Source of the DNA: a bacterium
Lineage (GTDB): Bacteria; Bacteroidota; Rhodothermia; Balneolales; Balneolaceae
NCBI GenBank assembly: GCA_024742815.1
Contig: JANSXX010000002.1
Span: forward strand, 299,395-331,394
Direction of reading: 5' to 3'
DNA length: 32,000 nucleotides
Position numbers and translations under genes: made by a program. Numbering within the stretch: the stretch's first letter is position 1; each line of letters opens with the position of its first letter. This document shows, piece after piece, positions 3,001 to 31,700 of this stretch. The notes beneath the pieces were generated by a model. It worked only from the letters and a program-made list of their open reading frames with translations, was not told where the DNA came from and did not search any database.

Positions 3001-3378
3001 TTGAGTGATTTAAACGGAAAAAGAAAGCGAGTACTAATTGTAGAAGATGACATGATTATTTCTCTTGTTATCGAAAATATGGTTAAAGAACTTGGTCACG
3101 AAGTTGTTGGTAAGGCTACCTCTGGTGATGAAGCTATTCGTTTAGCTACCGAGCATGTACCCGACTTAGTGCTCATGGACATTCGACTTAAAGGCGATAT
3201 GGATGGAATCGAGGCGGTGTCAGCCATTAAAGATAGCATCGATACATCGGTTATTTATCTCACAGGAAACTCAGATCGAGTTAATTACGAGCGCGCACGC
3301 GAGACAGATTTCATCGATTTAATAACTAAGCCATTCACCATCTCTGATCTTACCAGATCGATGGATTTGCTTAATTAA
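3001..3378 (+). CDS. Stand-alone response-regulator receiver (CheY-like) protein
   Basis: TTG start preceded by AGGAA. The first ATG would delete beta-1 of the domain. Receiver hallmarks are RVLIVEDD (acidic pocket), LVLMDIRL (phospho-acceptor Asp), YLTG and KPF. There is no output domain (125 aa). Confidence 0.85.
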   Translation: MSDLNGKRKRVLIVEDDMIISLVIENMVKELGHEVVGKATSGDEAIRLATEHVPDLVLMDIRLKGDMDGIEAVSAIKDSIDTSVIYLTGNSDRVNYERARETDFIDLITKPFTISDLTRSMDLLN

Positions 3379-3429: not shown

Positions 3430-4128
3430 TTGCGGGATACTATGAGTACAAAGTTCAAAAACCTAAAGAATGATCTTCAAGACCTCGAACAAGAGGTTGA
3501 CGAAACCGTTCTAAATACTCCCACAAGCACTTCAGGTGGGAGTAATTCTAAAGTAGCCAACTACATTCTTTTATTTGCATTCGTGGCTACATTGCTTTTT
3601 TATACCGGCAATAGAGTAGGCGATTTTTTTAGTGGAATAAACCCAATAGATGATTTTGTACAAGCAATAGATCAGCCAAGTGAAGATATTATTGTTGGTA
3701 TGGGTAATTGGATGCAAGACATGGGTTACGGAGAATTATCCCGTGAAGAGCTTCTCGATTTGAGAAGTGAAGGTGTTACGGCAACATATACTTCTCAAAT
3801 TAGAGATGTTGGATACGAGCCAACACTGGAACAATTAGTAGAATTACAGAGAGCTGATGTTAGTGCTACTTATGCCCGAATGATGAAAGAATTAGGGTAT
3901 GACCTGACAATTGAGCAATTAGCAGAAACACGACGAAACGAAGTAACAGCCTTCTTCACCTCAAATATGCTAGATTTAGGGTACACACTTGAAGAAATGA
4001 CGGTTGAAAAACTTATTGGCATGCGCAGTGTAGGTGTTTCACATAATATGGCTGAACGCCTAATTGCAGAGCGAGGCGAACGACCAACTATCGATGAACT
4101 TATTCGTTACGCGATCAGTAATCAATAA
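3430..4128 (+). CDS. Single-pass membrane protein with C-terminal tandem 28-29 aa repeats
   Basis: The ORF opens at TTG 3430, but ATG 3442 (MSTKFKN...) is the more likely start. It has an N-terminal charged coiled segment, one TM helix (YILLFAFVATLLFYTG), then repeats built on a recurring GY dipeptide. No family recognised with confidence. Confidence 0.6.
   Translation: MRDTMSTKFKNLKNDLQDLEQEVDETVLNTPTSTSGGSNSKVANYILLFAFVATLLFYTGNRVGDFFSGINPIDDFVQAIDQPSEDIIVGMGNWMQDMGYGELSREELLDLRSEGVTATYTSQIRDVGYEPTLEQLVELQRADVSATYARMMKELGYDLTIEQLAETRRNEVTAFFTSNMLDLGYTLEEMTVEKLIGMRSVGVSHNMAERLIAERGERPTIDELIRYAISNQ
3706..4104 (+). repeat. Intragenic tandem protein repeats, period 28-29 aa (~85 nt), 4-5 copies
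   Basis: The GY dipeptide recurs at residues 99, 128, 156 and 184. The unit is MGYgELsrEELldLRseGVTAtY / VGYePTLEQLvELQraDVSAtY / LGYdLTIEQLaETRrnEVTAfF / LGYtLEEMTVEKLigMRsvGVS, followed by a degenerate fifth copy (ERPTIDELIRY). Confidence 0.7.
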
Positions 4129-12300: not shown

Positions 12301-14184
12301 ATGGATACCATCGAACAAATCCCATTATCAACCAATATAAAATGTGGAAAGCATACCGACTTAGAAGAGGTGTTGAGCGTAGCTCCAAGTGTCACTTTGG
12401 CGCACAACTTAGAAGAGCTTGTTGATTTATCTGTTCCTTCCGGAGGATTAACCCATAATGTATGTTATGATTTACCTGATGGAACAAGATATTTAGAAGT
12501 AGAGGTAGCGAGAGTAAAAAATGGTATAGCAGCGAATTATACCGAATCATACATGAGAAGGAGAGACCCAAATTGTATGTTAATAGCAGACGACCTTCCT
12601 ACAGATAAGCCAAAATTTGAAGATAGATTCGATTATTCGTTCGATAGTTTACGCACCGAAACACTAGATTGGCTGAAAACACAGGATCTTGCTGTATTTT
12701 ATTTTAATGCAGGAAAGAAAGGAATGGGATACGATGCGATAGCAGTGATTCCAGCTAACGCGGGCTTTTTTGGGCTTGGGTTAGGTTTATTGCAAGGTAT
12801 CATCGACCCAGATGAATTACCGGAAGACTTTTCACCAGAAGCCGTTATCTATACCGCTCCAATTTTTCGCCACACTCATTTTGACGGAAAACAAATAGTG
12901 GTTCATAACCGAGTTCCCGGCAGATACGAAATGTTTAGCTACAACCTGTATCCTGGGCCTAGTGCAAAAAAGGGTGTTTATGGCATGCTTATTGGACAAG
13001 GTGAAAAAGAAGGTTGGGTTACAGCTCACTGTTCTGCAGTTCGAGCAGTTTCTCCATACGATAGCATTACAAATATCATGCACGAAGGTGCGAGTGGGGG
13101 AGGTAAAAGCGAAATGCTTCAACAACCTCACCGTCAAAGCGATGGCTCATTATTACTGGGCAAAAATATCGTAACTGGTGAGAAACGAACCTTAGAATTA
13201 CGTAGAACCTGCGATTTAGAACCTGTCACTGATGATATGGCGCTTTGCCACCCAAGTTTGCAAAAAAATGATGGTAAACTGTGGTTGGAAGACGCTGAGG
13301 AATCTTGGTTCGTTCGCGTTGATCATATCGATGAATATGGTACGGATATGATGTTAGAGAAGATCTCTGCAAAACCAGATCAACCATTATTATTTTTGAA
13401 TGTTGAAGCCGTTCCCGGCTCAAGAGCAATGATTTGGGAGCACAAAATGGATGCACCGGGTTTACCATGCCCAAATCCACGAGTTATAATTCCTCGAAAA
13501 TCAATGCCGGGCATATATTCTAATCCCATTGATGTTGATATCCGTAGTATTGGGTTAAGAACACCGCCAAGTACCGCCGAAAAGCCTAATTATGGTATCG
13601 TAGGATTGATGCATGTACTAAATCCATCTTTGGCTTGGTTATGGCGATTGGTTGCACCTCGTGGTCATGCAAATCCGAGCATTATTACCTCCGCTGGACT
13701 AAGTAGTGAAGGCGTAGGTAGTTACTGGCCATTTGCTACCGGTAAAAGAATTAATCAAGCAAATCTGTTACTCGAGCAAATCATTGATACTCCAAAAGTG
13801 AAGTACATACTTACTCCAAATCAATACATTGGAGCATGGAAAACAAGCTTTATGCCGCAGTGGATAAGTAGAGAATATCTTGCTCGAAAAGGTTCAGCTA
13901 ATTTCCCAGCAGAACAACTAAGTCCTTCAAGATGTAGTTTATTGGGGTATTCACTTAATTACATGAAAGTAGAAGGTATACAAATACCTAAGTGGATGCT
14001 TAAAGTGGAGTATCAGGAAGAATTAGGCAAAGAGGCTTATGATGTTGGAGCAAATATGTTACACGAGTTCTTCATTAAAACCCTAAGTAAATTTCAGGGC
14101 GATGGACTACATCCACTTGGCAAGCAAATCATAGAATGCTGTTTAGATAACGGTTCAACAGCTGATTACGAAGCTTTGCTATAA
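12301..14184 (+). CDS. DUF4914-like protein with an HprK/PEPCK-type P-loop
   Basis: 627 aa, soluble. It contains HEGASGGGKSEM, a G-x-S-G-x-GKSE Walker-A as in HPr kinase/PEP-carboxykinase-fold enzymes. The size (~630 aa) and FCB-group context match my recollection of the DUF4914 family. Not verified by search. Confidence 0.55.
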   Translation: MDTIEQIPLSTNIKCGKHTDLEEVLSVAPSVTLAHNLEELVDLSVPSGGLTHNVCYDLPDGTRYLEVEVARVKNGIAANYTESYMRRRDPNCMLIADDLPTDKPKFEDRFDYSFDSLRTETLDWLKTQDLAVFYFNAGKKGMGYDAIAVIPANAGFFGLGLGLLQGIIDPDELPEDFSPEAVIYTAPIFRHTHFDGKQIVVHNRVPGRYEMFSYNLYPGPSAKKGVYGMLIGQGEKEGWVTAHCSAVRAVSPYDSITNIMHEGASGGGKSEMLQQPHRQSDGSLLLGKNIVTGEKRTLELRRTCDLEPVTDDMALCHPSLQKNDGKLWLEDAEESWFVRVDHIDEYGTDMMLEKISAKPDQPLLFLNVEAVPGSRAMIWEHKMDAPGLPCPNPRVIIPRKSMPGIYSNPIDVDIRSIGLRTPPSTAEKPNYGIVGLMHVLNPSLAWLWRLVAPRGHANPSIITSAGLSSEGVGSYWPFATGKRINQANLLLEQIIDTPKVKYILTPNQYIGAWKTSFMPQWISREYLARKGSANFPAEQLSPSRCSLLGYSLNYMKVEGIQIPKWMLKVEYQEELGKEAYDVGANMLHEFFIKTLSKFQGDGLHPLGKQIIECCLDNGSTADYEALL

Positions 14185-14252: not shown

Positions 14253-16136
14253 TTAAGGAATATACTCTAAGTAAAAAATAATAGGTTCTATTGAAAAGCC
14301 TGAATTCAACAATCGATTGAAAATAGTTTGGGTTTCATTTCTATTAACCGATTGTCCCGTCATTACAGAATATCGACCACTAACGAGTTCTTCTACGCGG
14401 GTATTTATTCCTGTTCTTGATCGTACTTGTTGTGCTAGTTCATTGGCCTCTTGTCGATTACTCAGTTCGTCAACTTGAATTTGGTAGGCATATTTGTACG
14501 TAGCAGCTGTTTCCGGTTGGTGACGAATAAATAGATTTGAAGAAATTCCCATCTCCCTGAAAGTGCGTAATTGTTCTAGAACTACCTCTCGAGACTCGTA
14601 TGGTCCGGTAAGTACATTAAAAGTATCGGAAACTCGATTCATGTAAGCTTGTACACCGTATCGATCTAACAATTCGATGGTGAAATCTAAGCCATTAGCA
14701 CGGGTTTGAAATGCACCAAATTGAATGAGGTATTTTACAGGTTTCGGCCGCTGAATGGTATTGTTGTAACACTGATGAACAACACTTACACTTTTATCAT
14801 TAATTCTTGATGATAATTCATTTCGTAAGCTAACAACCTCTGTAAACGAGGAAGTAGGAGGTGTTCTAACCGAATATTCGTTGGTGTTATAGGTAAGTAT
14901 CACATCCGCTAAGTTTGATGATTCTATCGCATCAGCTCGTTGAAATGCTGTTTGTAAAGCAGAAAACTCACCAAGTTGCACCGAATACTGGCATCGAGCA
15001 TCCACTCGCAATAACGATGGCATGGCATTACTTGATGATGGAATTTCTGTAGCAGATGGTTCCGGCTCTGATTGCTCTACTGGTTCTAGTTCTTCTTCAG
15101 CTTGAGAAACAGACTCTTGTGTAACACTATCAGGATCGTTTTGAGGCTCAGCAGTTTCGGTAGCTTGTTGTCGATCTGAATCGGAATTAACATCGTCAGT
15201 TGCTGGTGTTTCTTCTTGCTGTTCAGCTGCTAACTGATTTCGGATTCGGTTTTCTTCCATCACCGTTAGTAAAGCCGGTTCTTCAGCTAAAACTACAACG
15301 TTTTCATTCGGATCGGGAGGAGGGAGCTCAGAAATACCAGGAATATCATTACTTAAACTTTCAGGAGTTCCTGATTCAGTTTCGCCAATAAACGATTCGT
15401 CATCAGTTTCCGGTTGTGTAAGAATTTCTTCTTTCAAATTATCAGATGAGTAATAAAGCCTTAATACCACTCGGCGATTTTTTTCTTTACTAGCCGCAAA
15501 AGGAAAACCTAAAGAATCATATTCAATTACCGGACGAGAATCTGCATAACCAGATGCTTTAAGTCGATTTGCGGGGATTCCAGCATCATTAAAATACTTA
15601 ACTACGTTTGCTGCTCTTGCTGTAGAAAGTTCCCAATTTGAGGGATAAGCTACGGATGAGATTGGAGTATTGTCGGTATGACCCTCAACATCTATTAAAA
15701 AATCGTTGTACTTAACCTGTTGCATAGCTATTAAAACGGTATTTAATAGCTGTTCGGAATTCGGATCTAACTGAGCTCGGCCCGGATCATAAAGGTCATC
15801 ACTTTTAAAACGAATTCTTAGATCATTTAAATCACGAATGATCTCCAGATTACCGGCTTCAATCTCCGGTTGAAGCAATTCGAATAATTCTCGTTCTATG
15901 GCTCCGATGGGAGTGGTTAAAAACTCAGTTTCATCTGCTAGTTTGCCAAAAATGGATGAAAGTGAAGAAAATTCGGACTTTGTAATTTGTGAAACAGAAA
16001 GCAGAATTATTAAAAACCCTAATACGATTGTAATGATATCAAGATAACTTACTTGCCAGCTCTCATCATCTTCTGATTCTTCATCCGGTAGTGGAAAAAG
16101 TGAATATTTAATTCTTATTGGTTTCTTTTTCTTCAC
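14253..16136 (-). CDS. MotB-like stator subunit: N-terminal TM with a conserved Asp, an OmpA-like peptidoglycan-binding domain, an acidic disordered linker and three C-terminal SPOR-like domains
   Basis: GTG start 9 nt after the MotA stop. SWQVSYLDIITIVLGFLIILL places an Asp (residue 33) at the mouth of the single TM, as in MotB D32. OmpA motif: VEGHTDNTPISS..YPSNWELSTARAANVVKYF...RLKASGYADSRPV...NRRVVL. Residues ~238-372 are E/D/S/P/Q-rich. Three beta-alpha-beta-beta-alpha-beta-like units start at YSVQLGEF, YLIQFGAFQTRANG and YAYQIQVDEL. Confidence 0.8.
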   Translation of the reverse strand: MKKKKPIRIKYSLFPLPDEESEDDESWQVSYLDIITIVLGFLIILLSVSQITKSEFSSLSSIFGKLADETEFLTTPIGAIERELFELLQPEIEAGNLEIIRDLNDLRIRFKSDDLYDPGRAQLDPNSEQLLNTVLIAMQQVKYNDFLIDVEGHTDNTPISSVAYPSNWELSTARAANVVKYFNDAGIPANRLKASGYADSRPVIEYDSLGFPFAASKEKNRRVVLRLYYSSDNLKEEILTQPETDDESFIGETESGTPESLSNDIPGISELPPPDPNENVVVLAEEPALLTVMEENRIRNQLAAEQQEETPATDDVNSDSDRQQATETAEPQNDPDSVTQESVSQAEEELEPVEQSEPEPSATEIPSSSNAMPSLLRVDARCQYSVQLGEFSALQTAFQRADAIESSNLADVILTYNTNEYSVRTPPTSSFTEVVSLRNELSSRINDKSVSVVHQCYNNTIQRPKPVKYLIQFGAFQTRANGLDFTIELLDRYGVQAYMNRVSDTFNVLTGPYESREVVLEQLRTFREMGISSNLFIRHQPETAATYKYAYQIQVDELSNRQEANELAQQVRSRTGINTRVEELVSGRYSVMTGQSVNRNETQTIFNRLLNSGFSIEPIIFYLEYIP

Positions 16137-16145
16137 AACAGCCGC

Positions 16146-16943
16146 TTAAATCATGTTTTTATTTCGGCGCATATGTGCTTGAAGCTTATCGTAAATTTGT
16201 AGCGAAGTTTTTTGCTCTTCGATTAGAATAATTCCCTCCAGGATCAATTTCTCTCTAAAATACCGTAGTGAAGCCACATTATTCATCTTTTTAGCCATTG
16301 GCGTGAAAATAAAATTACCAATCAGAATACCATATAATGTGGTCATTAAAGCAGCACCTAACCCACTCAATAACGACTCTACTTCACTAAATCCTGATAG
16401 GATTACGATCAGGCCAAAAAGGGTTCCTAACATCCCGAAAACAGGAGATGTCTTGCCCATACTAGCAATAATTTGATTCACCATTTGCTGGCGAGAGTAG
16501 TTTTCTTCAATATTGATCTCCCCAAGCTCACGAAGATCTTCGGTGTCATAATTGGTATCCAAAATCGAAAATAAATACCCCTCGAAACGATCAGCATATT
16601 CTTCGCTGAGCTGAGTAACTGCCGCGAATTTATTTTGCTTAATCATCTTTTGCCAGTCCATTACCCGCTGTATGTCTTCTTCTAACACCTCGTGGGTGAT
16701 GGTGCTATAAGAAAACAGTTTAGTGCTTTCAACGAGCGCCTTAATTACACTATTGAAAGGATAGCTAATAAATACACTGGCAGTTATTCCTCCGAAAACG
16801 ATGGCTAAACTTGGCAGATTTAAAAAAGCGAATCGAGAGGGAATTAAATCGTATTGCGTATACCCGGTTACCAGAAGTGCACCCCAAACCAAAATCAACA
16901 AAGAAATTAGAAAACATAGAATATTGAGTATGGATGTACGCAT
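16146..16943 (-). CDS. MotA/PomA-like stator proton-channel subunit
   Basis: 265 aa with a 4-TM MotA topology: TM1-TM2 at the N-terminus, a ~100-aa charged cytoplasmic loop, TM3-TM4, then a cytoplasmic tail. TM3 TSPVFGMLGTLFGLI and TM4 ALMTTLYGILIGNFIFTPMAKKM carry the conserved Pro residues of the MotA_ExbB channel core. Confidence 0.8.
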   Translation of the reverse strand: MRTSILNILCFLISLLILVWGALLVTGYTQYDLIPSRFAFLNLPSLAIVFGGITASVFISYPFNSVIKALVESTKLFSYSTITHEVLEEDIQRVMDWQKMIKQNKFAAVTQLSEEYADRFEGYLFSILDTNYDTEDLRELGEINIEENYSRQQMVNQIIASMGKTSPVFGMLGTLFGLIVILSGFSEVESLLSGLGAALMTTLYGILIGNFIFTPMAKKMNNVASLRYFREKLILEGIILIEEQKTSLQIYDKLQAHMRRNKNMI

Positions 16944-19345: not shown

Positions 19346-22316
19346 GCCTATTCACCCTTTCTTCAAGTACTTCCATATCCGGAATTACAAGGTCGGGGTT
19401 AAATCGGAGTGCCTGTTCCCAATGTCGTTGCGCCTGATCGATGTTACCTTCAAAATAATAAAAACTTCCCTTTAAAGCGTGTGCTTGTGCAGTTTCAAAA
19501 AGTTCTAATGATTCGTTAACATAGCGGAAGGCTAAGTCTATGTTGTTAGAATAAAAGGCGTTTTGAGCTTTGATTATGAGCCGTAAAGCATTATCAACTT
19601 CTTTAAATACTTCTTGAGAATATTCTAATATTTCTGGCGACGATTTTATCTCGTCGGTAACCTGTGCAATAGTGAGCGCGGCAAGGCTGTCTTCTTGGGA
19701 TTGTTGTTGTACATCAAGAGGGTAGAGCTCGAAATTTAGTCCTTCTACAAAATCACCATCTCTAGTAGTTTCAACCTCAAAGTTTATAAGTTCAGGCTCG
19801 GATCTTGACTGAAGTATTGAAAGTTGAGAGGGATCAATTTCTAACCTGTAATCACCCGGGCGAATAGGATATTCATAAAAACTTCCATCAGAAAATGTTC
19901 TAAGTTCCTTTACCTCATTCTCTTTTAGATCAGTAAGAAGCACTTTAAGTCCTCCAATCCCTTGCGATAATCCACCTTCGTAAATTCTAGCAACATTTCC
20001 TTCCATTACGCCACTCATGTTGAATGGGATATCTATTAGTTTAAAACTATTAGGATCCGTAATTATCGAAAATTTATCTTCTTCAGGTACCAACATTGGG
20101 TTTTTAATTGACGCCTGATTTAGTTCAACGTTGTAACGAAAATATGAGTTTAATTGAGTGTAATACAGGATTCCATTTTTAGAAACAGATGAAGCACCGC
20201 TTCTACCTAGTCTCAAGTTTATATCATCAAGTAATTCATCTTCCGATTCTTCATAAACTCCATTAGTGTTATTGTCCACAAAAAACCGAACTGCAGTTGC
20301 AGACCTTCCAACCTGATTACGGCTTGTCCAGATAAAATTATTAAAGTTAGAATCATAACCGATAGACCCCCTAACTGTTTGGCTTGCGCTTGTATTTCCT
20401 CTAATGAAAGTTGATGTAGAATTTGATCTTACTTTACCGAAATCGATGACAAAATTGAGTCTAATCGTATTAAATTGTCCTTGAAAATTTCTACCAAAAG
20501 ATGCCTGAATTCTTCCTTGGTTAAAAACACTTCGAGAAACAAGAACTTCGCCTTGCTGAAATTCATTAGTTGATGGTAAAAAGCGAAATTGACTTCTTAT
20601 AAATGTACCCCTTATAAATTTTGGGATATTTGGGTTCCTCGAAAAGTTATAGGTTATGGCAGATTCTACTAATCCTGAACCGGAACTGTTAAAAATATTG
20701 TAGGAGTCAATAATTCTGTCGGTATATCCTAATCTAAAATTAATTCTACTAATTTTTGCACTGACATCAGTTCTAATGGTACTTATACTTACCCCTTCAC
20801 GTACTCTTGTGAAATTGGAGTATCTCAATCCAAAAGGTTGATTGAAGATTTTTATAGGGAAGAAAACATTACCAATAAATTGGTAGTCATTATTGGAGCT
20901 ATTGAAAAAATTAGATTCCCCGGTGAAATTTGTAAAATCAAAATTTAAGCTTGCAGAATTTGGATAAACAGCATTTACTGAAGAACGTAAATATCCGTCG
21001 GTTACACCTTCAAGTGTTAAAATGTAATTTCGTGCAATTCTGCTGGAAAGGGTTGCAGTGTAAAAGGGAATATTCTTGCCAATTTCTGTCGAGTAATATT
21101 CCATACCAACTTTCGAGCTTAACCAGCGATTTATCCCATAGCTAACGTTAGCCTGCAGTGTTTTTTCTCTTTCTAATTTACCGATTACTCTGTTATCTAA
21201 AACCCCAGCATTAATACGATAATCAAACTCACCTTGTGGTACGAAATTAAACGGGATTTGCTGTCGATTCCTTTGTTGAATTACTTGTCCTGTTGGCCCG
21301 TAAATTCTTATGTCTAGTTGGGTTGTTCCATAATATTGTGGAACTAAAAATCGATAATTTCCGAATTCATCGGCTTGGCTAAAATCAATTAATGCATTAT
21401 CTAGATATAGTTCGATTTCAGACTGTGGTATAGTTGTGCCTTGTAGCTCAAATTCATCAAAAAGTCGCCGAGGTTCAATTGGTTCGTTCGAGATTCTAAT
21501 CCCCGTATAACTGTTCATAAAAACTCCATCTGTATTTGATTGCCCAACAGTTATAGAACTCAACCACGAGTTGTTTCGGATAAGAGTTTTCCAGCGTAAG
21601 TTATTGCTTTCAAATACAGAACTTTCTGAGCTAAAATTTCCAAATAAACTACCTTGTAAATCTCCCCCTAATAGTTGTAATCCTAAAGAGCTACTGTAAT
21701 TAAAGGAGCTTAATTCGCTACTTAAATTAGTTCCAACACTGTAATCAAGAAATCCCCCGTCAACTATTTTTCTCTCCAAACCATACCCAATGGGATAATA
21801 GCTAACATCCCTTCGATTGGTGTTTGCAAGCTTCAATTTTGCTCTTCGTAAAAATTGTTGGATAATTGGAATTTCAACTTCTGTTTCTAATCGGAGCGTT
21901 AGATTGTTAAAGTCAACAGAGAAGTCTAAACCAAATATTTCAGAAAAGTATCTGGGAGGTAAGTATGTATCCAGATCTGTAAGTATGTAGTCATCGGTAG
22001 TGATTGAATAAGATTGATCACCAAAAACGATTGTTTGCCTTCTTAAATCAATTGAGTAAGGGGTTTGTTCTAGGGCAAACTTACCACTAATAACAATGTC
22101 GTTTACATTTGCCTCAATATGAAGTAGTTCAAATAATTCCTTTACAGGTAAATTAAATTCTTCACCATCATAATAAGCTATCACATAAGAATTAATTACT
22201 CCACGATGGCTAAATTGGAGATATACTTCGAAATCATCTTCACTTTGAGCGTAAACAGAACTACTAAATATTAGTAGCAAAAAAAAAAAGAGAAAAAAGC
22301 CTAGGCATTTTCTCAA
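19332..22316 (-). CDS. Large outer-membrane protein: usher-like beta-barrel with CarboxypepD_reg-like beta-sandwich inserts and a C-terminal TPR module
   Basis: TTG start overlaps the chaperone-like stop (TTGA). Signal peptide MRKCLGFFLFFFLLLIFSSSVYAQ. Long runs of alternating amphipathic beta-strand sequence rich in Y/F/N/S/G/R. Beta-sandwich-like segments GNYRFLVPQYYGTTQLDIRIYGPTG and DGSFYEYPIRPGDYRLEIDP. A TPR tail at the C-terminus. The usher role is inferred from position (after the chaperone-like gene, next to the pilin-like genes) and size, not from recognised motifs. Confidence 0.45.
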   Translation of the reverse strand: MRKCLGFFLFFFLLLIFSSSVYAQSEDDFEVYLQFSHRGVINSYVIAYYDGEEFNLPVKELFELLHIEANVNDIVISGKFALEQTPYSIDLRRQTIVFGDQSYSITTDDYILTDLDTYLPPRYFSEIFGLDFSVDFNNLTLRLETEVEIPIIQQFLRRAKLKLANTNRRDVSYYPIGYGLERKIVDGGFLDYSVGTNLSSELSSFNYSSSLGLQLLGGDLQGSLFGNFSSESSVFESNNLRWKTLIRNNSWLSSITVGQSNTDGVFMNSYTGIRISNEPIEPRRLFDEFELQGTTIPQSEIELYLDNALIDFSQADEFGNYRFLVPQYYGTTQLDIRIYGPTGQVIQQRNRQQIPFNFVPQGEFDYRINAGVLDNRVIGKLEREKTLQANVSYGINRWLSSKVGMEYYSTEIGKNIPFYTATLSSRIARNYILTLEGVTDGYLRSSVNAVYPNSASLNFDFTNFTGESNFFNSSNNDYQFIGNVFFPIKIFNQPFGLRYSNFTRVREGVSISTIRTDVSAKISRINFRLGYTDRIIDSYNIFNSSGSGLVESAITYNFSRNPNIPKFIRGTFIRSQFRFLPSTNEFQQGEVLVSRSVFNQGRIQASFGRNFQGQFNTIRLNFVIDFGKVRSNSTSTFIRGNTSASQTVRGSIGYDSNFNNFIWTSRNQVGRSATAVRFFVDNNTNGVYEESEDELLDDINLRLGRSGASSVSKNGILYYTQLNSYFRYNVELNQASIKNPMLVPEEDKFSIITDPNSFKLIDIPFNMSGVMEGNVARIYEGGLSQGIGGLKVLLTDLKENEVKELRTFSDGSFYEYPIRPGDYRLEIDPSQLSILQSRSEPELINFEVETTRDGDFVEGLNFELYPLDVQQQSQEDSLAALTIAQVTDEIKSSPEILEYSQEVFKEVDNALRLIIKAQNAFYSNNIDLAFRYVNESLELFETAQAHALKGSFYYFEGNIDQAQRHWEQALRFNPDLVIPDMEVLEERVNRRASD
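22279..22289 (-). repeat. Homopolymeric T11 tract (A11 on + strand) inside the signal-peptide coding region of the usher-like gene
   Basis: Counted directly: CTC TTT TTT TTT TTG encodes LFFFL of MRKCLGFFLFFFLLL. A further A6 run lies 3 nt away. Confidence 0.9.
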
Positions 22317-23179
22317 CGTTTAATAAATGTAGTAGTTTCTGTAACATTTGGCATTTGAACTAGATCAGAATCTGGAATATCACTTCGTCGACTCTCAAAT
22401 GTAGTTCTGATTAGATATTCACCATTCGGAATATCGTCGATTTCGAATTCTTGACGGAAAATGCCGTCAAAATATAATGATGTTGATAAGAAGCCACGTC
22501 GTACTTCCTGTCCGTTACTATCAATAATAGAAGTTGTAATAGAGCCTAAAAATGGGCTGTTACCGGTTCGTAAATGATCAATAAGAACAATAAGCTTTCC
22601 TGACTCAGAATCATATTCAGTTCTAATTTCTTCTATATCTATACCAGTTGCAACATCGCCTTTTTTATAAAATATACCTGTCACCTGCTCTACTCTAATA
22701 CCCACTCTTGCAGCAACTGTATTTTCGGTTTGTAATTCTATCGGCGGTGTTTCAGGTGTGGAAGCAGTCTTAATCCTTGCCCAGTAGGTCCCATCCTCAA
22801 GTTCATTGGGAGGATTCAGTCGAAGTCTGATTACTTGTCTTTGCCCCGGAGCGAGTGTAAAATTTCTGGGAAAAGCACGAATGTACTCGGCAATCGAGTG
22901 TTTCTCTCTCATCTGCTGATCATCCTGTACAATGGTTCTATATCCTTGCTCGTCACTTTCGGTGTAAGCGAAAGCAAAATCTATAGATATTTCTTGAGTC
23001 TCATTTGAGTTGTTGATCACCATGTAGGTCCCAAATCGAGCATTTTCAGCCACGAATAAGTTAGTGGGGGCAATGGTTACTTGTGCAGTTGCGATCGAGA
23101 TAGATGATATTATAGATAGTATCGCTGTAAATGTAATAATAGACTTCATCGCGTAGATATAATTTGCCATCGAGATCAA
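22313..23179 (-). CDS. PapD-like periplasmic pilus chaperone candidate (two Ig-like domains)
   Basis: The ORF opens at TTG 23179. Alternative ATG starts lie at 23170 and 23149 (MKSIITFTAILSIISSISIATAQ is a good signal peptide). VTIAPTNLFV...GTYMVINNS and IRAFPRNFTLAPGQRQVIRLRL..P.ELEDGTYWARIKTASTP mirror the PapD domain-1 pattern (v.l..tR.if......l.v.N ... atPP..rl.Pg..q.vRl....lP.DrEslf..n...iP). Confidence 0.5.
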   Translation of the reverse strand: MISMANYIYAMKSIITFTAILSIISSISIATAQVTIAPTNLFVAENARFGTYMVINNSNETQEISIDFAFAYTESDEQGYRTIVQDDQQMREKHSIAEYIRAFPRNFTLAPGQRQVIRLRLNPPNELEDGTYWARIKTASTPETPPIELQTENTVAARVGIRVEQVTGIFYKKGDVATGIDIEEIRTEYDSESGKLIVLIDHLRTGNSPFLGSITTSIIDSNGQEVRRGFLSTSLYFDGIFRQEFEIDDIPNGEYLIRTTFESRRSDIPDSDLVQMPNVTETTTFIKR

Positions 23180-23246: not shown

Positions 23247-23278
23247 AAAAAAAAAGTCTCACAGCTGTGAGACTTTTC
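23247..23278 (-). terminator. Strong intrinsic terminator (or attenuator) after the major pilin-like gene
   Basis: Perfect palindrome AGTCTCAC-AGCT-GTGAGACT (23255-23274). On the minus strand it is followed by nine U (A9 at 23247-23255 on + strand). It lies 24 nt downstream of the stop at 23298. Confidence 0.7.
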
Positions 23279-25643: not shown

Positions 25644-26039
25644 TCACCACGCGAAGGCGTTGAAATAGAAGGGATCTAGCTCGATTTCTCTTCCCTGGAG
25701 TTGTATTGAACGTGGCAGTACTTCGGTAAGGCGTACGTAATTGGATGTCATCTCAAAATTGTAATTGAGCATCTGATTTCTGAATCTGGATGAAAACCGT
25801 ACGGTGATGGAGTAGATGCTGTCCCGAGGTGCCTCGTCTACCAGATAATAGGGGTTGGGAGTGTTGATCGGATAGAGATCGCCAACAATTTTGATTTGAT
25901 CTCGACCGGGTATAAAAGTGCTATCTTCAAGCTGTGGTTTCAGATTTACACTAAAAGTGATCGAAGTTTGAGCTTGAAGATAGCTTGAGGTTGAAATAAA
26001 AAGAGTAATAAAAAATACTAAATAAGATAGTGTTCGCAC
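25644..26039 (-). CDS. Small secreted beta-sandwich protein (CBM20/Ig-like pattern), function unknown
   Basis: GTG start 1 nt after the stop of the 490-aa gene. Signal peptide ending YLQAQ. ITFSVNL....GRDQIKIVGDL......YYLVDEAPRDSIYSITVRF....LNYNFEM resembles a starch-binding-like sandwich but lacks the usual Trp residues. Confidence 0.4.
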   Translation of the reverse strand: MRTLSYLVFFITLFISTSSYLQAQTSITFSVNLKPQLEDSTFIPGRDQIKIVGDLYPINTPNPYYLVDEAPRDSIYSITVRFSSRFRNQMLNYNFEMTSNYVRLTEVLPRSIQLQGREIELDPFYFNAFAW

Positions 26040-26040
26040 G

Positions 26041-27513
26041 TTAGTTATTGCTTTTGTTTACTTCGTCTTTCCAGTATACAATAGAGAAAACACTTTCTCT
26101 TGGGAATGATGGTGGAATAGTTGCCTTCAACCGGTTGTCATATTGGTAATTCTTGATGTAGCCGGAAACTACCGTACTTCCGGAAAAGGTGCCAACCGGT
26201 CCACGATTTTGTTGAATGATTCCACCTAACATATTTAGTGTACCTTTGCTACCACCAGAATTATAGTTCTCTACGGTAAAAGAGGTATTTAGCGCTACAA
26301 TAGATGCATGAATGGTTAAATCCTGAGAACCATTAGCCGAATGGGCATATCGATCAACTACAACATCTCCTTCGCTCACCAAACCGAGTAAGTCGGCAGA
26401 CGTTGAATCGGCAAGGGGGTTAACGCGGTAAGTAATATCGCCCATAATTTCGATTTCATCTTCGGCGTGTAAGGTTACACTGCCGCTAACTTCACCCTGT
26501 ACTTTTATTTCACCATCCGTAGAAATCACACCATTAATGTCGGCCAGGTTTACCGTTTCAACGGTTGGTGGAGTTGGAGGAATGGGAGTACACCACCACA
26601 TCCAATTAGCACAGTCATTCCCCGGTGAGCCACCATAAGAAATATCAGCATAGCCATGATCAGCATCGTAGTAAAAATCTACATTAATATCCCCTGAGTA
26701 TCTTTTCCCACCATCGTTAGCAGCAGCAACAAGTCGGTTAATTTCGTAACTCGTAGGTTCACTTTTTAGCGGTGCGTTGAAGTTTTCTCCACCATAGAAG
26801 TTTGGATTCGTCGGGTTGGTACTGTGAGCTCGCCACATATTTGGGCTCGTAACCAATCCATAAAAAGAGGGTGCACCAGACATCGCGAATTGCCCATTGG
26901 TATGGATTGGACCATAAATATTATCCTGATCCATAAACCAAATGGTAGAGCCATTAGCAGCTAACTCAGATTGAGTCATGTAGGAATACTTACTAAAGGA
27001 ATCTCGTTGCATCAACACTTCGGTAGTCACTTCAATATCATCGTATGTGCTTGAACTTACCAGCAGTACTTTATATTCGTCCCAACTACCTACACTATTG
27101 TTCGGTTTGTTTTGACTGTCTTGGGTATAGCTATTTAAAGAACCTGCGAGGTTAATAGGTAAGGTAATACCGGTTTGGTTAAGTTGATCTTCAAGTTGCT
27201 CTTCTATTTCTAGCACTTCATCTAAACCTAGTAACCCTAAGCTTAGTTTTTTTCGACCTTCATTTGAGCGTGAAAGTAAAGCTTTGGTATCCACTACCTC
27301 ATCTATGTCGATGCTGCCTACCCAGTTGTTATTGTCTTTCATCGTTTCAACCGCATTGTCGATTAAACTTTTAGACAGATTTCTGGCTTGTTGCGCTTTG
27401 TAATAATCGGTAGTTACAACTGGGATTTCGGCCACACGATCTTGGTTGTTTACCTGCACAATGCCCGTTAAAATTGTAAGTCCGCTTACTAAGAATAATA
27501 AACTTCTTCCCAT
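26041..27513 (-). CDS. PilX/GspK-like large minor-pilin-type protein with an N-terminal hydrophobic anchor
   Basis: ATG preceded by a strong SD (AAGGAGAAGTT-ATG). The N-terminus is MGRSLLFLVSGLTILTGIVQV, followed by YYKAQQARNLSKSLIDNAVE (PilX_N-like helix). The C-terminal end GTLNMLGGIIQQNRGPVG....SGYIKNYQYDNRL...PPSFP resembles the conserved ending of PilX-like proteins as I recall it. Confidence 0.45.
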   Translation of the reverse strand: MGRSLLFLVSGLTILTGIVQVNNQDRVAEIPVVTTDYYKAQQARNLSKSLIDNAVETMKDNNNWVGSIDIDEVVDTKALLSRSNEGRKKLSLGLLGLDEVLEIEEQLEDQLNQTGITLPINLAGSLNSYTQDSQNKPNNSVGSWDEYKVLLVSSSTYDDIEVTTEVLMQRDSFSKYSYMTQSELAANGSTIWFMDQDNIYGPIHTNGQFAMSGAPSFYGLVTSPNMWRAHSTNPTNPNFYGGENFNAPLKSEPTSYEINRLVAAANDGGKRYSGDINVDFYYDADHGYADISYGGSPGNDCANWMWWCTPIPPTPPTVETVNLADINGVISTDGEIKVQGEVSGSVTLHAEDEIEIMGDITYRVNPLADSTSADLLGLVSEGDVVVDRYAHSANGSQDLTIHASIVALNTSFTVENYNSGGSKGTLNMLGGIIQQNRGPVGTFSGSTVVSGYIKNYQYDNRLKATIPPSFPRESVFSIVYWKDEVNKSNN

Positions 27514-27522
27514 AACTTCTCC

Positions 27523-28104
27523 TTAATATGGTAAGTTGATATTGTTCGGTACAAAAATTCGTTTCCAGATTAATCTAGGATATTGCTGATTCCCGTCATT
27601 AATTGTGTATGGTTCTACTGTTTCAACCATTAATTCAACTTCGATTTTTTTAACAGAGGCCAACGTAGTTGTTGGAGTACCGTCCGCTGTGTAGTAATTC
27701 AAATCGAAATAAACTACCGGAAACTCAATGGTTCCGTACGAGCTGGTGCCAATTGGCCCCACTCTTTTTAAATAATAATCGTTTGGATTGGTGCTGTTTA
27801 CGGCATCGCTGGTGTCGAAATACCAACGTATATTTGTAGATCCATAGCTGTCGTTATCATACACATCAGCCTGAAAAATAATATTCTGATCGCCAATTGT
27901 AGTGAAAGGAACCGCTGTGCCGGCGTTAAAACCAATCTTATTAAAATCGTTTGCAAGTACATCAACCAAGTTGTCTAAATTCGATTGGTTGATGGTGTTT
28001 AGTGTTAGTTCCTGGGTTTGATTTATAACCTGAGCGTTGAAATTCAGGATCGAAATCATGAATAATCCACCAATCACGAATGTTATGGCTAGTCCTGCAT
28101 TCAT
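27523..28104 (-). CDS. PilW/GspJ-like minor-pilin-type protein
   Basis: N-terminal hydrophobic helix MNAGLAITFVIGGLFMISIL. The body follows the minor-pilin pattern: IIFQADVYDND...IRWYFD...YYLKRV...VVYFDLNYYTADGTPTT.LASVKKIEVELMVE. There is no G-F-T-L-x-E prepilin site. Confidence 0.45.
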   Translation of the reverse strand: MNAGLAITFVIGGLFMISILNFNAQVINQTQELTLNTINQSNLDNLVDVLANDFNKIGFNAGTAVPFTTIGDQNIIFQADVYDNDSYGSTNIRWYFDTSDAVNSTNPNDYYLKRVGPIGTSSYGTIEFPVVYFDLNYYTADGTPTTTLASVKKIEVELMVETVEPYTINDGNQQYPRLIWKRIFVPNNINLPY

Positions 28105-28106
28105 GG

Positions 28107-28526
28107 CTAGTAGGTGTAGGATTTAACGTATTCTAAGGTAATAAATACTTCGGGGGTAACATTCTGATTGAGTACAGTAACCGTTACTTGGTATTTTTTC
28201 ATCGAACCGGTATCCTCAATTAATTCTGAAGTACCGTTTATAATAAAAGTAGAACTGTATTGATCACTTGATCCGTAATTATGTACTTCTTCGATGGGGT
28301 AGCTTGAGTATACATAGTTACCGCTACTTGGGTCTAATTCGTCGGAATCATAGATCCATTGCACTTTATCCAATTCATCCTGAGCAACAGCAATTGCACG
28401 ATATTCAGCTTCGGCTTGGTAAATTGCCTGCCGGTTTGAGTTGAAACTTCGTGCGGTATTTAAGGATAGAAACCCAAAAATAACCATCGCTCCAATCAAA
28501 TATGTTAACTCAGCGTAACTGCTCAT
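28107..28526 (-). CDS. PilV/GspI-like small minor-pilin-type protein
   Basis: The N-terminus is MSSYAELTYLIGAMVIFGFLSL, followed by an amphipathic helix QAIYQAEAEYRAIAVAQDELDKV and a small beta domain ending KKYQVTVTVLNQ...VFITLEYV. An in-frame stop lies 6 codons upstream, so no longer leader is possible. Confidence 0.4.
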   Translation of the reverse strand: MSSYAELTYLIGAMVIFGFLSLNTARSFNSNRQAIYQAEAEYRAIAVAQDELDKVQWIYDSDELDPSSGNYVYSSYPIEEVHNYGSSDQYSSTFIINGTSELIEDTGSMKKYQVTVTVLNQNVTPEVFITLEYVKSYTY

Positions 28527-28799: not shown

Positions 28800-31700
28800 T
28801 TATTTAATAAAGGTCATCTTTTTGATAAAGATTTCACTATTTGCCTTTAATCGGTAGAAATATACTCCGCTTGCTAATCTTGAAGCGTCGAATCGAACTT
28901 GGTACCGGCCCGGAGTGCGTGCTTCATTTACCAGGGTTTGGATTTTACGTCCTAATAGGTCAAAAATTTCGAGTGTTACATTTGCAGATTCATTTACTCC
29001 AAATTCAATAGTAGTAGATGGATTGAATGGATTGGGGTAGTTCTGGTTTAGGAAAATCTGTTCTGGAACATCACGTTCTATTTGTTCGGTCGAAATCTTT
29101 AAGGTAAACCGAGTTGACATAGTCGCAGCTTTAACTTTAAGCCTACTTTGTGGGGATAATGGATTTAAATTCCTTCTGATTTTAGCACGGGTTGAATGGG
29201 TAAATTCATACGTTAACTCATCGAGCATATTGATTTCCTCGCCGGTCTCATTATCAATTAAGGTTAGAATCCAATCTTCGGGAATACCTCTAAAATCGCC
29301 CCAAACCATCTCATATACACCGTTTACGGGAGCGCCGTTTTCAAAAGCATCAAAATGAAGTGGTATAAAATATCGAGTATTAAAATCGATGGGTAAGTTA
29401 TTTATTGCTAACTCAGTTCCGTTATCTAACAAGCTGTGAAATTCGAGATGTGAACTGGAGAGAGGTAACAAGCGGTAGCCGTCTAAATCATCTTTACCTT
29501 TTTGTGCATTTTCGGTAAGTATGATATTAGTGCGTTTGGTTCTGCCCGATTCGGAAGTTACAGCCAGTTGAATTTGCGGAATCAACGGTGTATCTGAACG
29601 TTGTTTTGATTTACTGGAGTCGATCTGTGCTTGTTTTCTTAAAAATGAACCAAGTGTAGTTTTCGCTTCTTTATTTACGGTTAGCTCAGGACTTGGGCCA
29701 CTGGCTTTTACCCAAAATCCCTGGAAAGGAGCGATTAAGCCTGAATTTGGTAACGTTCCTGAAACACCATTCCAAGTTAAATACTCACCATCACCTCCGT
29801 TTGCGGCAGGATCCCAAATGTAGATGGTAGACTCAACATTCGTTTTGGTCCAATTAGAAGCGTCATCCCAATCGATAGTAGCAGCAAAAGGATTACCTAC
29901 TAGATTCCAGCCTGAATCGGCAGCAGGAGTGTACGTAATGCCGAAATCAACTTCTGTTCCATCGCCATCCCATTCTTGTCCACTTGCGTCCAAAGTATCA
30001 GGTAATGCATCGTTATAAAGTGGATCTGCAGCAATATCCCCAAAAACGAATACAAACATTCCTTGTCCCTGTGTTACCGATGTTGCAGCGCTTGCAGGCG
30101 CACGATAGCGTTGATTATCGGTGCCTGAAGCACTCTCTACATACGTAAGTACATTTGGCTGCAAAGTGTCGCCGGGATTGGTTCCGGTGGCATAAAAAGC
30201 ACCCGTATATCCTTGTGTAAGTGTGCCGTCTAATAAATCGCCGTATGTGGTATTAAAAGGCGATGAAATTAAGCGCCATCCAATGCTTCCGCTTATTCGG
30301 CGTTGCATTCGAATCGATCCCGAGCCGTAGGATTTACTGTTAGCGATCAAATTTGACCCGCTTGGTAAAAACATCACGCCATCAACCAATTTCAACGAGT
30401 CGGAAACGGTTACATCACCGGGGAAATCAACACCGGCACTATTGTCAATTACCAGGTTAGTAAAATCGGTAGGATTTGTAATATCCTGATTCGCAGAACC
30501 ATCTAAAATTATAAATCCTAAAGAAGCATCGCCAACATCTAAATCGCCACCAACAGTAAGTGTATCAGTATTAGATCCTAATATTTCACCTTCGCCCGAT
30601 GCTTCACCTGTAACAATAAAGTTTTTGCCACCCGAGATAGTTACTGTTGCTGAATTCTCAATTGAAATTTGTGCGACCGTGGTGTTCGTTGTGTTTATAA
30701 CCGGCTGTTCGTTTCCTACCGAAGGCGTGGCAGGGATCAGAACAATATCGGTTGAAAGTGGTACAGAACCAGCGCTCCAGTTTGTAGGATCATCCCAATT
30801 TCGTGCATCAGCTACCGAACCCACTTGCGATTGCCACTGAGTATTGAAATTTGCGTATTCTACCTGAGCATTATCTGTGATTGAAGCCGCATTTAAGGTG
30901 CCAGTTATTGTTGCGGTACCAGCAGTTATTGATGAGGTTAAAGTAGCTGTATAAGTACCATCACTATTGTCAGTAACTGAGCCGAGTGATCCTGAAGTAG
31001 TACTTAAAGCAACGGTTTCGCCACCATTTGTAAGATTATTGCCCTCAGAATCTTTGGTTTGAACAGTTATTGTTGAAGTAGAAAATCCATCGTTAAAAAT
31101 TACGGTAGGACTTGCAGAAATAGTAGTAGTTGCTTCGGATGCAGGACCAGGTGTAACAGTAAAGGTATTACTTGTACCAGCTTCTGATCCCGCCGAATTT
31201 GTTGCCGTTAACGAACACGTTCCTAAACTTGAAATACTAACTGTTTTAGATGCAAGAACTCCACTTACAAAGGAAGCTGAAGTTCCGGCTCCTGTGCCAA
31301 TTGAACAGTTACTAGTAAGCACGATAGTGCCTGTAAATGTAGTAACAGTATCTTGGGCGCCATCAACAGCAACAATGGTGATATTGAAATTCTGCCCGGC
31401 TAACTTATTCGAAATATTACCGGATGGAACACGCTCCACAGTAAAACCGGTGAGTTCACCAGGTGCTACCACATCAAATTGATTACTTGTGGTATCGGTT
31501 AAACCCGAACTAGAAGCCGTTAACGTGTAGGTTCCGGTGTCATCCACTATCAAATTGTCGAATTCAGCAATCCCGAATAGATTCGTTTCTTCGAGAAGGG
31601 TAGAGCTTCCATCCAGCACTCCCGTCCCGCTTATCTGATTAAGTGCCATGGTAACATCAACCCGACTTTCTTCTACTGAGTTACCGTATTGGTCGATAAG

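Follow-up and report, generated by a model that had tools for sequence, protein, structure and literature searches.

We analysed a stretch of 32,000 nucleotides from a Balneolaceae genome (assembly GCA_024742815.1, contig JANSXX010000002.1, positions 299,395 to 331,394; here called the window), in which a sequence-only reading had singled out a pair of genes for MotA- and MotB-like proteins outside any flagellar gene context. Our preferred reading, to which we assign a probability of roughly 60%, is that the 2 proteins are the stators of a non-flagellar rotor-stator module that is derived from the MS-ring/FliG core and probably coupled through TPR adaptors to an outer-membrane usher or its fibre. 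The operon combines a rotor-stator core with a chaperone-usher-fold pore. Since no gene for flagellar export, rod, hook, or filament proteins is located nearby, it suggests that the flagellar motor core has a use outside flagella that has not been described. No described system of this kind was found in full-text literature searches.

The MotA- and MotB-like proteins are encoded by 2 adjacent open reading frames (ORFs) on the minus strand, the coordinates of which match the previously indicated interval exactly. In the order of transcription, the row consists of 4 genes for DUF4402-like proteins, a hairpin, a gene for a protein of 288 aa, and the genes for an usher-like protein of 994 aa, a rotor-like fusion of 617 aa, a TPR lipoprotein of 185 aa, MotA and MotB. 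The rotor-like gene is thus located 2 genes upstream of the MotA-like gene, and it overlaps with the usher-like gene. From the gene in the chaperone position through MotB, consecutive ORFs overlapped by 4, 14, or 17 nt or were separated by gaps of 7 or 9 nt, the latter being the distance between MotA and MotB, and the genes in the row are translationally coupled. Scans for Sigma-70 and Bacteroidota -7 promoter motifs gave matches at chance level.

The MotA-like protein obtained 61.8 bits with the Pfam family MotA_ExbB (cut-off 22.9) and was aligned end to end with the NCBIfam models MotP, MotA, and PomA with E-values of 1e-30 to 1e-26; in the MotP alignment, residues 4 to 262 were placed on model positions 5 to 254. 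A phmmer search against the PDB yielded E-values of 1e-22 to 1e-9 for flagellar MotA and PomA (residues 16 to 258 were aligned with residues 7 to 245 of 9lu9), as compared to 0.08 for TolQ and 0.4 for ExbB. For the alignment of individual residues, we used Escherichia coli MotA and Vibrio alginolyticus PomA as references, both of which were confirmed as exact database sequences. The alignment with PomA contained no large gap, and the cytoplasmic domain between transmembrane (TM) helices 2 and 3 had the same length as in PomA and lacked the extra segment of E. coli MotA. The previously proposed layout of 4 TM helices and a long cytoplasmic domain follows from this colinearity with the solved MotA and PomA proteins, and the architecture is, as judged by alignment alone, of the 'TGI4' flagellar type (PMC12505986).

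The prolines in TM3 and TM4, which had been described as kept, were recovered at the expected positions: P167 (in SPVFGMLGTLFG) corresponds to P151 in PomA and P173 in E. coli MotA, and P215 (in NFIFTPMAKK) corresponds to P199 and P222, respectively. Likewise, the channel threonines T174 and T202 correspond to T158 and T186 in PomA, the latter being T209 in MotA. To assess conservation, we scanned for the locus in one genome per species, which resulted in 46 loci; residue counts are given for 44 orthologues, or for 48 members of the fusion family described below when more distant relatives are considered. P167, T174, T201, T202, and P215 were each conserved in 44 of 44 orthologues, and the invariant cytoplasmic residues W97, T130, N131, and Y132 constitute a signature that is particular to the MotA subfamily of the cassette. 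The residues that had been called catalytic signatures are thus intact, although the word is a loose one for residues that line an ion channel.

A profile built from this MotA subfamily matched the solved flagellar MotA and PomA proteins over residues 40 to 262 with E-values of 7e-37 to 1.5e-19, whereas the matches to ExbB and TolQ had E-values of 0.006 to 0.014 and covered about 55 residues in TM3 and TM4 alone. These results support the assignment of the pair, by sequence, to the flagellar type rather than to the ExbBD/TolQR type, as had been suggested from the topology. Placement within the ExbBD/TolQR group was rejected on the E-values taken together (0.006 to 0.4 over TM3 and TM4 only, versus 1e-37 to 1e-19 for flagellar stators) and on the OmpA-type MotB partner. 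A kinship with GldL or ZorA was also rejected, as the profile matched no GldL, PorL, or ZorA chain at E-values of 10 or below. The MotA proteins of distant and paralogous cassettes were 35% to 46% identical to the MotA in the window, as compared to 23% for PomA, and the comparison in silico indicates that the MotA proteins have co-diverged with their cassettes.

The MotB-like protein matched the Pfam families MotB_plug (31.8 bits, cut-off 24) and OmpA (PF00691, 58.7 bits, cut-off 27.2), and the scores for its 3 SPOR-like repeats were 15.1, 27.9, and 21.0 bits. D33 (in SYLD33IITIVLGF) was aligned with the aspartate in the TM helix of MotB from Clostridium sporogenes. W27, Y31, and D33 were each conserved in 44 of 44 orthologues, as was the peptidoglycan-binding motif GHTD...SNWELSxxR...NRR, in agreement with the aspartate and OmpA motif that had been noted previously, and the TM aspartate was also retained in distant cassettes.

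The neighbouring protein that had been described as FliG-like was confirmed as such, with Pfam matches above the cut-offs for FliG_N (38.9 bits), FliG_M (34.7 bits), and FliG_C (38.5 bits), and it was found to contain in addition a domain resembling RBM3 and the collar of FliF, a TM helix, and a helix resembling the FliF C-terminus with an almost invariant tryptophan. An AlphaFold2 (AF2) model was predicted from 37 homologues with a mean predicted local distance difference test score (pLDDT) of 75. In this model, the periplasmic part is a single RBM-type domain with an alpha, long beta-hairpin, alpha, and beta arrangement. A Foldseek search with the model retrieved full-length FliG (E = 2e-8), SpoIIIAG (E = 0.06), and, from numerous structures of the MS-ring, the RBM3, S-ring, or collar region of FliF (E-values of 3e-5 to 1.6e-4, with TM-scores of 0.45 to 0.58 for the target). 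Furthermore, residues 166 to 325 were aligned with positions 399 to 554 of the 555 positions in the NCBIfam FliF model TIGR00206 (E = 2e-4), and a weak profile match to residues 404 to 560 of Salmonella FliF (E = 0.15) was colinear with both the NCBIfam match and the fold. A search of the PDB with the single sequence of the periplasmic domain gave no match. The kinship with FliF is thus indicated by structural and weak sequence evidence only. Because the FliG and FliF RBM3 matches in Foldseek and the colinear matches to the FliF model and to Salmonella FliF agree, the 617-aa protein is predicted to be a truncated FliF fused to FliG. It lacks RBM1 and RBM2, contains 1 TM helix rather than the 2 of FliF, and starts with a hydrophobic leader, the last residues of which form the 'AQ' motif for signal cleavage that is common to all secreted proteins of the row.

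The torque helix of the fusion, RPTREQRLLRMELEEL, was the best-conserved stretch in the cytoplasmic part. In this helix, R579 corresponds to R281 and E587 to D289 in FliG, and R576, P577, R579, E580, Q581, and E587 were nearly invariant in Balneolaceae; among the distant members, R579 was R or K in 47 of 48. The exposed LPGLP tip and the RGD motif of the ring domain were near-invariant in the same set (47 to 48 of 48). The EHPQ motif for binding to FliM was not retained; it aligned to EDSL, and only E422 was conserved. A profile search of 1.84 billion representative sequences identified 157 clusters at E-values of 1e-30 or below after clustering at 50% identity, nearly all of which were 560 to 810 aa long and aligned end to end, and the fusion therefore represents a large family.

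The gene located upstream of the fusion encodes a protein with the fold of an outer-membrane usher. An AF2 model from 30 homologues (pLDDT 79) matched FimD and PapC in Foldseek with E-values of 1.4e-27 to 1e-17 over 720 to 940 columns, and in the model the 994-aa protein has the layout of a FimD/PapC-fold usher, with an N-terminal domain, a gated barrel, and C-terminal domains. The TPR module in its C-terminal extension is shared with the lipoprotein, and also with a small outer-membrane protein (OMP) in the paralogous cassette described below. The gene for the TPR lipoprotein was present in 45 of the 46 loci, and a cysteine was seen after the hydrophobic leader in the orthologues for which the N-termini were listed. 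Many usher-like homologues in Gracilimonas, Fodinibius, and other genera were 1,150 to 1,550 aa long and contained SPOR domains that replaced or joined the TPR tail, one of which was labelled 'usher FimD/PapC / DedD' by JGI. It was also noted that the SPOR domain was attached to either MotB or the usher, depending on the lineage.

The genes upstream of the usher have the order of a pilus operon. The 183-aa DUF4402-like protein is a putative major fibre subunit, and the hairpin that follows its gene looks like a terminator or attenuator of the kind found after major pilin genes. This was also the most variable gene in the row, detected in 30 of the 46 loci and usually with an identity of 31% to 38%, and the genes for the 174-, 194-, and 163-aa proteins were each present in 42 of the 46 loci. 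No solved relative of the DUF4402-like proteins was found, and attempts to link them by sequence to solved pilins failed. An attempt to prove by sequence that the protein of 288 aa is a chaperone of the PapD kind likewise failed: the family profile gave no match in the PDB, the Pfam matches were weak and mixed, and of the 26 members of the family, 3 matched PapD_N, all of them weakly (best E = 0.013). We also noted a weak match to Por_Secre_tail, a sorting domain of the type IX secretion system (T9SS), in 18 of the 26 members (best E = 1.6e-5); if this match is real, the protein would be exported to the surface and would not serve as a chaperone in the periplasm.

Table 1. Features of the gene row, with positions in the window
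Feature	Position	Strand	Evidence and remarks
MotB-like stator B subunit, 627 aa, GTG start	14253..16136	-	Pfam, alignment; TM helix with D33, plug, OmpA-type domain, acidic low-complexity linker, three SPOR-like repeats
MotA-like stator A subunit, 265 aa, ATG start	16146..16943	-	Pfam, NCBIfam, PDB, alignment, subfamily profile
TPR lipoprotein, 185 aa	16951..17508	-	Pfam/alignment; TPR module homologous to C-terminal TPR of usher
Rotor-like fusion, 617 aa	17492..19345	-	Signal peptide; FliF-RBM3/beta-collar-like periplasmic domain ~58-198; TM 225-251; FliF-C-terminus-like helix 300-324 (W321); FliG N/M/C 328-616
Outer-membrane usher-like protein, 994 aa	19332..22316	-	FimD/PapC fold by Foldseek; C-terminal TPR extension ~883-987
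Secreted beta-sandwich protein, 288 aa, pilus-chaperone position	22313..23179	-	Weak matches only: fn3_5, WxLIP, TcfC, PapD_N, Por_Secre_tail
Hairpin and T-run, terminator/attenuator-like	23251..23278	-	12-bp stem, 4-nt loop; directly after 183-aa DUF4402 gene
DUF4402-like secreted protein, 183 aa	23298..23849	-	DUF4402 24.4 bits (cut-off 25.2)
Three DUF4402-like secreted proteins, 174, 194, 163 aa	23950..25549	-	194-aa protein: Pfam 27.9 bits (cut-off 25.2)

Nearly all of the 46 loci were from genomes labelled Balneolales (Balneolaceae, Balneola, Gracilimonas), including Gracilimonas tropica DSM 19535 (L037) and Balneola sp. EhC07, and 2 were from metagenome-assembled genomes (MAGs) labelled otherwise. 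All 46 loci were colinear over the whole row, which starts with the DUF4402 genes and ends with MotB, and both MotA and MotB were present in all of the 43 loci that were long enough to show them. MotA was the best-conserved gene in the row, with 66% to 98% identity in the 43 species loci, as compared to identities down to 38% for the rotor-like gene, and the sequences of MotA and MotB indicate clear purifying selection. The earlier view that both proteins are functional rather than decayed thus agrees with intact ORFs, purifying selection, and conserved residues. Flagellar genes in Balneolaceae have been interpreted as remnants of an ancestral flagellum (PMC9909488), by which the cassette could be seen as the decaying relic of a lost flagellar system. 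Such an origin of the row as we find it today is hardly credible, and it is effectively refuted by the conservation data: the ORFs were intact and colinear in 46 loci, the MotA identities were high, the functional residues were conserved in 44 of 44 orthologues, and no fewer than 157 clusters at 50% identity make up the family.

The synteny of the row is conserved over deep divergence. We examined 5 loci of distant members of the fusion family (L050 to L054), for which the identity to the rotor-like protein was 15% to 25%. L050, a Bacteroidales MAG, contained a DUF4402 gene with a Pfam match, genes for proteins of 279 aa and 996 aa, and the genes for the fusion, a TPR protein, MotA, and MotB. 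The metagenome contigs L051 and L053 contained genes for small secreted proteins, a gene for a protein of 272 to 283 aa, and the genes for an usher-like protein, the fusion, MotA, and MotB; the usher-like proteins were 32% to 34% identical to the 994-aa protein, and a faint DUF4402 match was seen in L053. In these 2 contigs, genes for an AraC-type response regulator and a histidine kinase were located directly after MotB (L051:9755-11928 and L053:11728-13898), which suggests two-component control of the system there. Finally, L052 contained the genes for a 388-aa OMP with TPR, the fusion, a 155-aa protein, MotA, and MotB; the 388-aa protein had a weak match to an OMP beta-barrel and the same TPR module.

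Genomes with a cassette of the window type also contained a second, paralogous cassette without genes for the usher or the DUF4402 proteins, a kind of cassette to which we also count L052 and L054. One such cassette (L001:6477-11526, in the same 3.34-Mb genome as L003 and L049) contained the genes for a fusion of 609 aa with 23% identity, an OMP-like protein of 367 aa ending in ...GVIRF, a TPR lipoprotein, a MotA with 46% identity, and a short MotB of 230 aa without SPOR. The existence of cassettes without an usher (L001, L052), together with the peptidoglycan-binding SPOR domains on the MotB in the window and on the usher homologues in Gracilimonas, could mean that the FliG-like, TPR, MotA, and MotB proteins form a module that is independent of the usher and DUF4402 genes and is active in, for example, envelope or peptidoglycan processes, such that the gene neighbourhood only reflects co-regulation. 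However, the usher and rotor genes overlapped, and they remained neighbours over rotor identities that ranged from 98% to about 20%. In addition, the TPR module of the usher is also found in the lipoprotein of the cassette, and where the usher is missing, the cassette encodes an OMP with this TPR at the corresponding position. We therefore consider independence from the usher to be decidedly improbable.

No genes for flagellar export, rod, hook, or filament proteins or for FliM/FliN were found in the window, within 10 kb of the 46 loci, or in the distant loci, which bears out the earlier statement that the pair is located outside flagellar gene clusters. The genomes of Balneola vulgaris, G. 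tropica, and other type strains have been reported to lack genes for flagellar assembly (PMC9909488), and the species have been described as non-motile with the exception of B. vulgaris, which was described as motile with flagella (PMC5167729). The 2 reports on B. vulgaris are at odds. The cassette was found in G. tropica, a non-motile species. Its occurrence there, and the strictly conserved synteny and coupling with the genes for the FimD/PapC-fold usher and the DUF4402 proteins, indicate on comparative grounds that the task of the module is non-flagellar, as had been proposed for the pair together with its FliG-like neighbour. In a survey, 11% of non-motile species were reported to have rotor proteins, the role of which was not settled, but no filament proteins (PMC12199754).

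The pair could still represent an ordinary flagellar stator with a variant FliG, for which the other flagellar genes are located elsewhere in the genome. The motAB genes are often unlinked from other flagellar genes, B. vulgaris has been described as flagellated (PMC5167729), and genomes of Aliifodinibius, which also belongs to the Balneolaceae, contain many flagellar genes (PMC9909488). However, the MotA-like protein scored far below every NCBIfam stator equivalog cut-off (at best 105.5 bits versus 394 for MotP, and 103.9 versus 237 for PRK09109), the FliG-like part is joined to a truncated FliF and does not contain EHPQ, the genomes contain 2 cassettes, each with a rotor-like gene of its own, and the synteny with the usher is invariable. 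Given also that the cassette is present in G. tropica, for which no flagellar-assembly genes were reported, an ordinary flagellar role is very improbable. As judged from these comparisons, the pair shares ancestry with flagellar stators but is placed below the curated thresholds and outside a flagellar gene context.

From these parts we infer the formation of a complex, the assembly of a ring, rotation, coupling through the TPR modules, and an output. In the non-flagellar rotor-stator module that we propose, the MotA- and MotB-like proteins would form an ion-driven stator of the flagellar type, probably 5:2 as in its solved relatives, which would be anchored to peptidoglycan by the OmpA and SPOR domains of MotB. 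Its partner would be the bitopic inner-membrane fusion instead of a flagellum. Since all proteins with an RBM3-type fold that are known to us form rings, the modelled FliF-RBM3/collar-like domain may assemble into a ring in the periplasm. Ion flow through the D33 channel would turn or step MotA against the torque helix of the FliG-like ring, and the periplasmic ring would pass the movement or force to the outer-membrane partner, its LPGLP tip and RGD motif contacting the TPR modules of the lipoprotein and of the C-terminal extension of the usher. Because the outer-membrane partner would here be an usher with the FimD/PapC fold, and its substrates would be DUF4402 fibre subunits, the energised assembly, gating, movement, or rotation of a surface fibre may be the output. 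The most far-reaching version, in which a fibre assembled from DUF4402 subunits by the usher is whirled or driven by the FliF-RBM3-FliG rotor and MotAB without type III export, rod, hook, or flagellin, would make this a third kind of rotary surface filament, and we view it as a long shot. If B. vulgaris carries the cassette, a rotary DUF4402 fibre could explain why 'flagella' were described (PMC5167729) in a species reported to lack the genes (PMC9909488).

The module may also be real and non-flagellar but act as a non-rotary or stepwise force transducer, in the manner of TonB and TolA, which pulls or gates the usher during plug removal or the hand-over of subunits. The known non-flagellar relatives ExbBD and TolQR are 5:2 motors that exert force at the outer membrane (PMC12204202), the function of the usher fold requires movement of its plug and periplasmic domains, and the TPR adaptors suggest a tether. 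On the other hand, the partner to be driven presents a conserved FliG torque helix on a ring fold of the FliF-RBM3 kind, which is the sole combination known to be spun by MotAB, and no elongated protein of the TonB or TolA kind is encoded in the row. A purely non-rotary mechanism is unlikely on balance, if one to be taken seriously.

Several observations weigh against a rotor-stator module coupled to the usher. Besides the flagellar genes in Aliifodinibius, these include L054, which contained a rotor-like gene, an OMP gene, and a TPR gene but no MotA/MotB alongside. The suggestion to examine the charges at the positions of the MotA R90/E98 pair gave a divided answer. The basic site was kept, in that K102, which aligns with R88 in PomA, was K or R in 34 of 44 orthologues and K105 in all 44, but the acid was not at the aligned position, which is occupied by T110/Q111, and E114, E115, and E121 are merely nearby; in this region, the MAFFT placements relative to PomA and to E. 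coli MotA were 3 residues apart. In the fusion, E587 was acidic in just 22 of 48 distant members, and at a predicted TM-score (pTM) of 0.33 the AF2 model does not define the relative arrangement of the domains. The usher-like protein had no match to the Pfam usher family at the sequence level, and the assignments of the chaperone and pilins are weak. Moreover, we know of no precedent for torque acting on an outer-membrane usher, and the support is wholly computational, such that all statements about the function of the cassette are inferences.

When compared to known systems, the pair resembles flagellar MotAB and PomAB (the 'FIT' clade, TGI4 type; Puente-Lelievre et al. 2025, PMC12505986) in the colinear A subunit with its cytoplasmic length, TM3/TM4 prolines, and T158/T186 threonines, in the B subunit with TM aspartate, plug, and OmpA domain, and in the adjacent location of the A and B genes. 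It differs in scoring below all curated cut-offs, in its own W97/T130/N131/Y132 signature and the lack of conservation at the E98 position, in the SPOR triplet added to MotB, and in the linkage to an usher rather than to flagellar neighbours. Similarly, the fusion resembles FliF and FliG of the MS-ring and the top of the C-ring in its RBM3 and long beta-hairpin collar-like fold, the FliF-C-terminus-like helix with tryptophan, the FliG N, M, and C domains, and the torque helix with an R281 equivalent. However, it is a single polypeptide without RBM1/RBM2 and EHPQ, its cleavable signal peptide is followed by one TM helix instead of two, and no FliM/FliN, export gate, or rod is encoded near it.

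In Bacteroidota, GldLM and PorLM form an ion-driven motor of the 5:2 type in the inner membrane that powers an outer-membrane machine for gliding and type IX secretion. The concept of a motor that energises an outer-membrane machine is shared with the cassette, as is the phylum, and the window also encodes T9SS cargo; however, the proteins are not related in sequence, and the periplasmic shaft is GldM itself, with no counterpart of the FliG/FliF-like ring that would stand in between in the cassette. ExbBD-TonB and TolQRA share the MotA_ExbB superfamily with the cassette and also convey force to the outer membrane, but their similarity to the cassette is limited to TM3/TM4 (E about 0.01), the B subunit of the cassette is of the OmpA type, and the row contains no TonB- or TolA-like gene. 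Finally, the likeness to chaperone-usher pili (FimD/PapC, and the archaic Csu type) includes the usher fold over nearly the full length, the order of subunits, gene in the chaperone position, and usher, and an attenuator-like hairpin that follows the gene for a subunit. Assembly by the classical chaperone-usher route proceeds without a source of energy. In contrast to these pili, the usher in the window has a TPR tail and shares its operon with a rotor-stator module; the subunits resemble DUF4402 proteins, and by sequence the chaperone is not recognised as PapD-like.

To our knowledge, and in the literature that was searched, torque generation by FliG and MotAB has been described only inside flagella, and every described non-flagellar 5:2 motor that we know of (ExbBD, TolQR, AglRQS, GldLM, ZorAB) drives a different kind of partner. 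If the preferred reading is true, the flagellar rotor-stator core is a portable module, which bears on the use of 'half a motor' and on the modularity of flagellar evolution, and the cassette would be the first chaperone-usher-type system with an input of energy. The idea is testable because cultured hosts exist, namely G. tropica DSM 19535 and Balneola sp. EhC07.

A few other genes in the window were also recorded. Genes for proteins of 139, 193, and 490 aa (the last with DUF4900) are located at 26041-28526 on the minus strand and have hydrophobic N-termini but otherwise no family matches; they are followed by a gene for a secreted protein of 131 aa (25644-26039, minus strand) just upstream of the DUF4402 genes. 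These genes accompanied the cassette in just 26 to 28 of the 46 loci and may represent an accessory module. A stand-alone receiver-domain protein of 125 aa, PhyR/CheY-like, is encoded at 3001-3378 on the plus strand and is followed by a gene (3430-4128, plus strand) for a protein of 232 aa that matched no family and contains internal repeats, each about 35 aa long; the 2 genes are 11 kb away from the operon and have no evident link to it. Between MotB and the gene for the pyruvate dehydrogenase E2 subunit, a DUF4914 protein (627 aa, 981 bits) is encoded at 12301-14184 on the plus strand. This gene was present only in the window and in the 98% identical locus L004, and was not detected in the 36 other loci that show E2, where E2 was located about 1.7 to 2.7 kb downstream of the MotB start; because of this confinement, it looks like a recent insertion. 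Furthermore, 2 large surface proteins with type IX secretion C-terminal sorting domains, one of which has an invasin D3 domain, are encoded at 28800-31793 on the minus strand and 62-1435 on the plus strand. The gene for a surface protein of 997 aa heads the same strand block as the cassette, and homologues were located upstream in 26 of the 46 loci.

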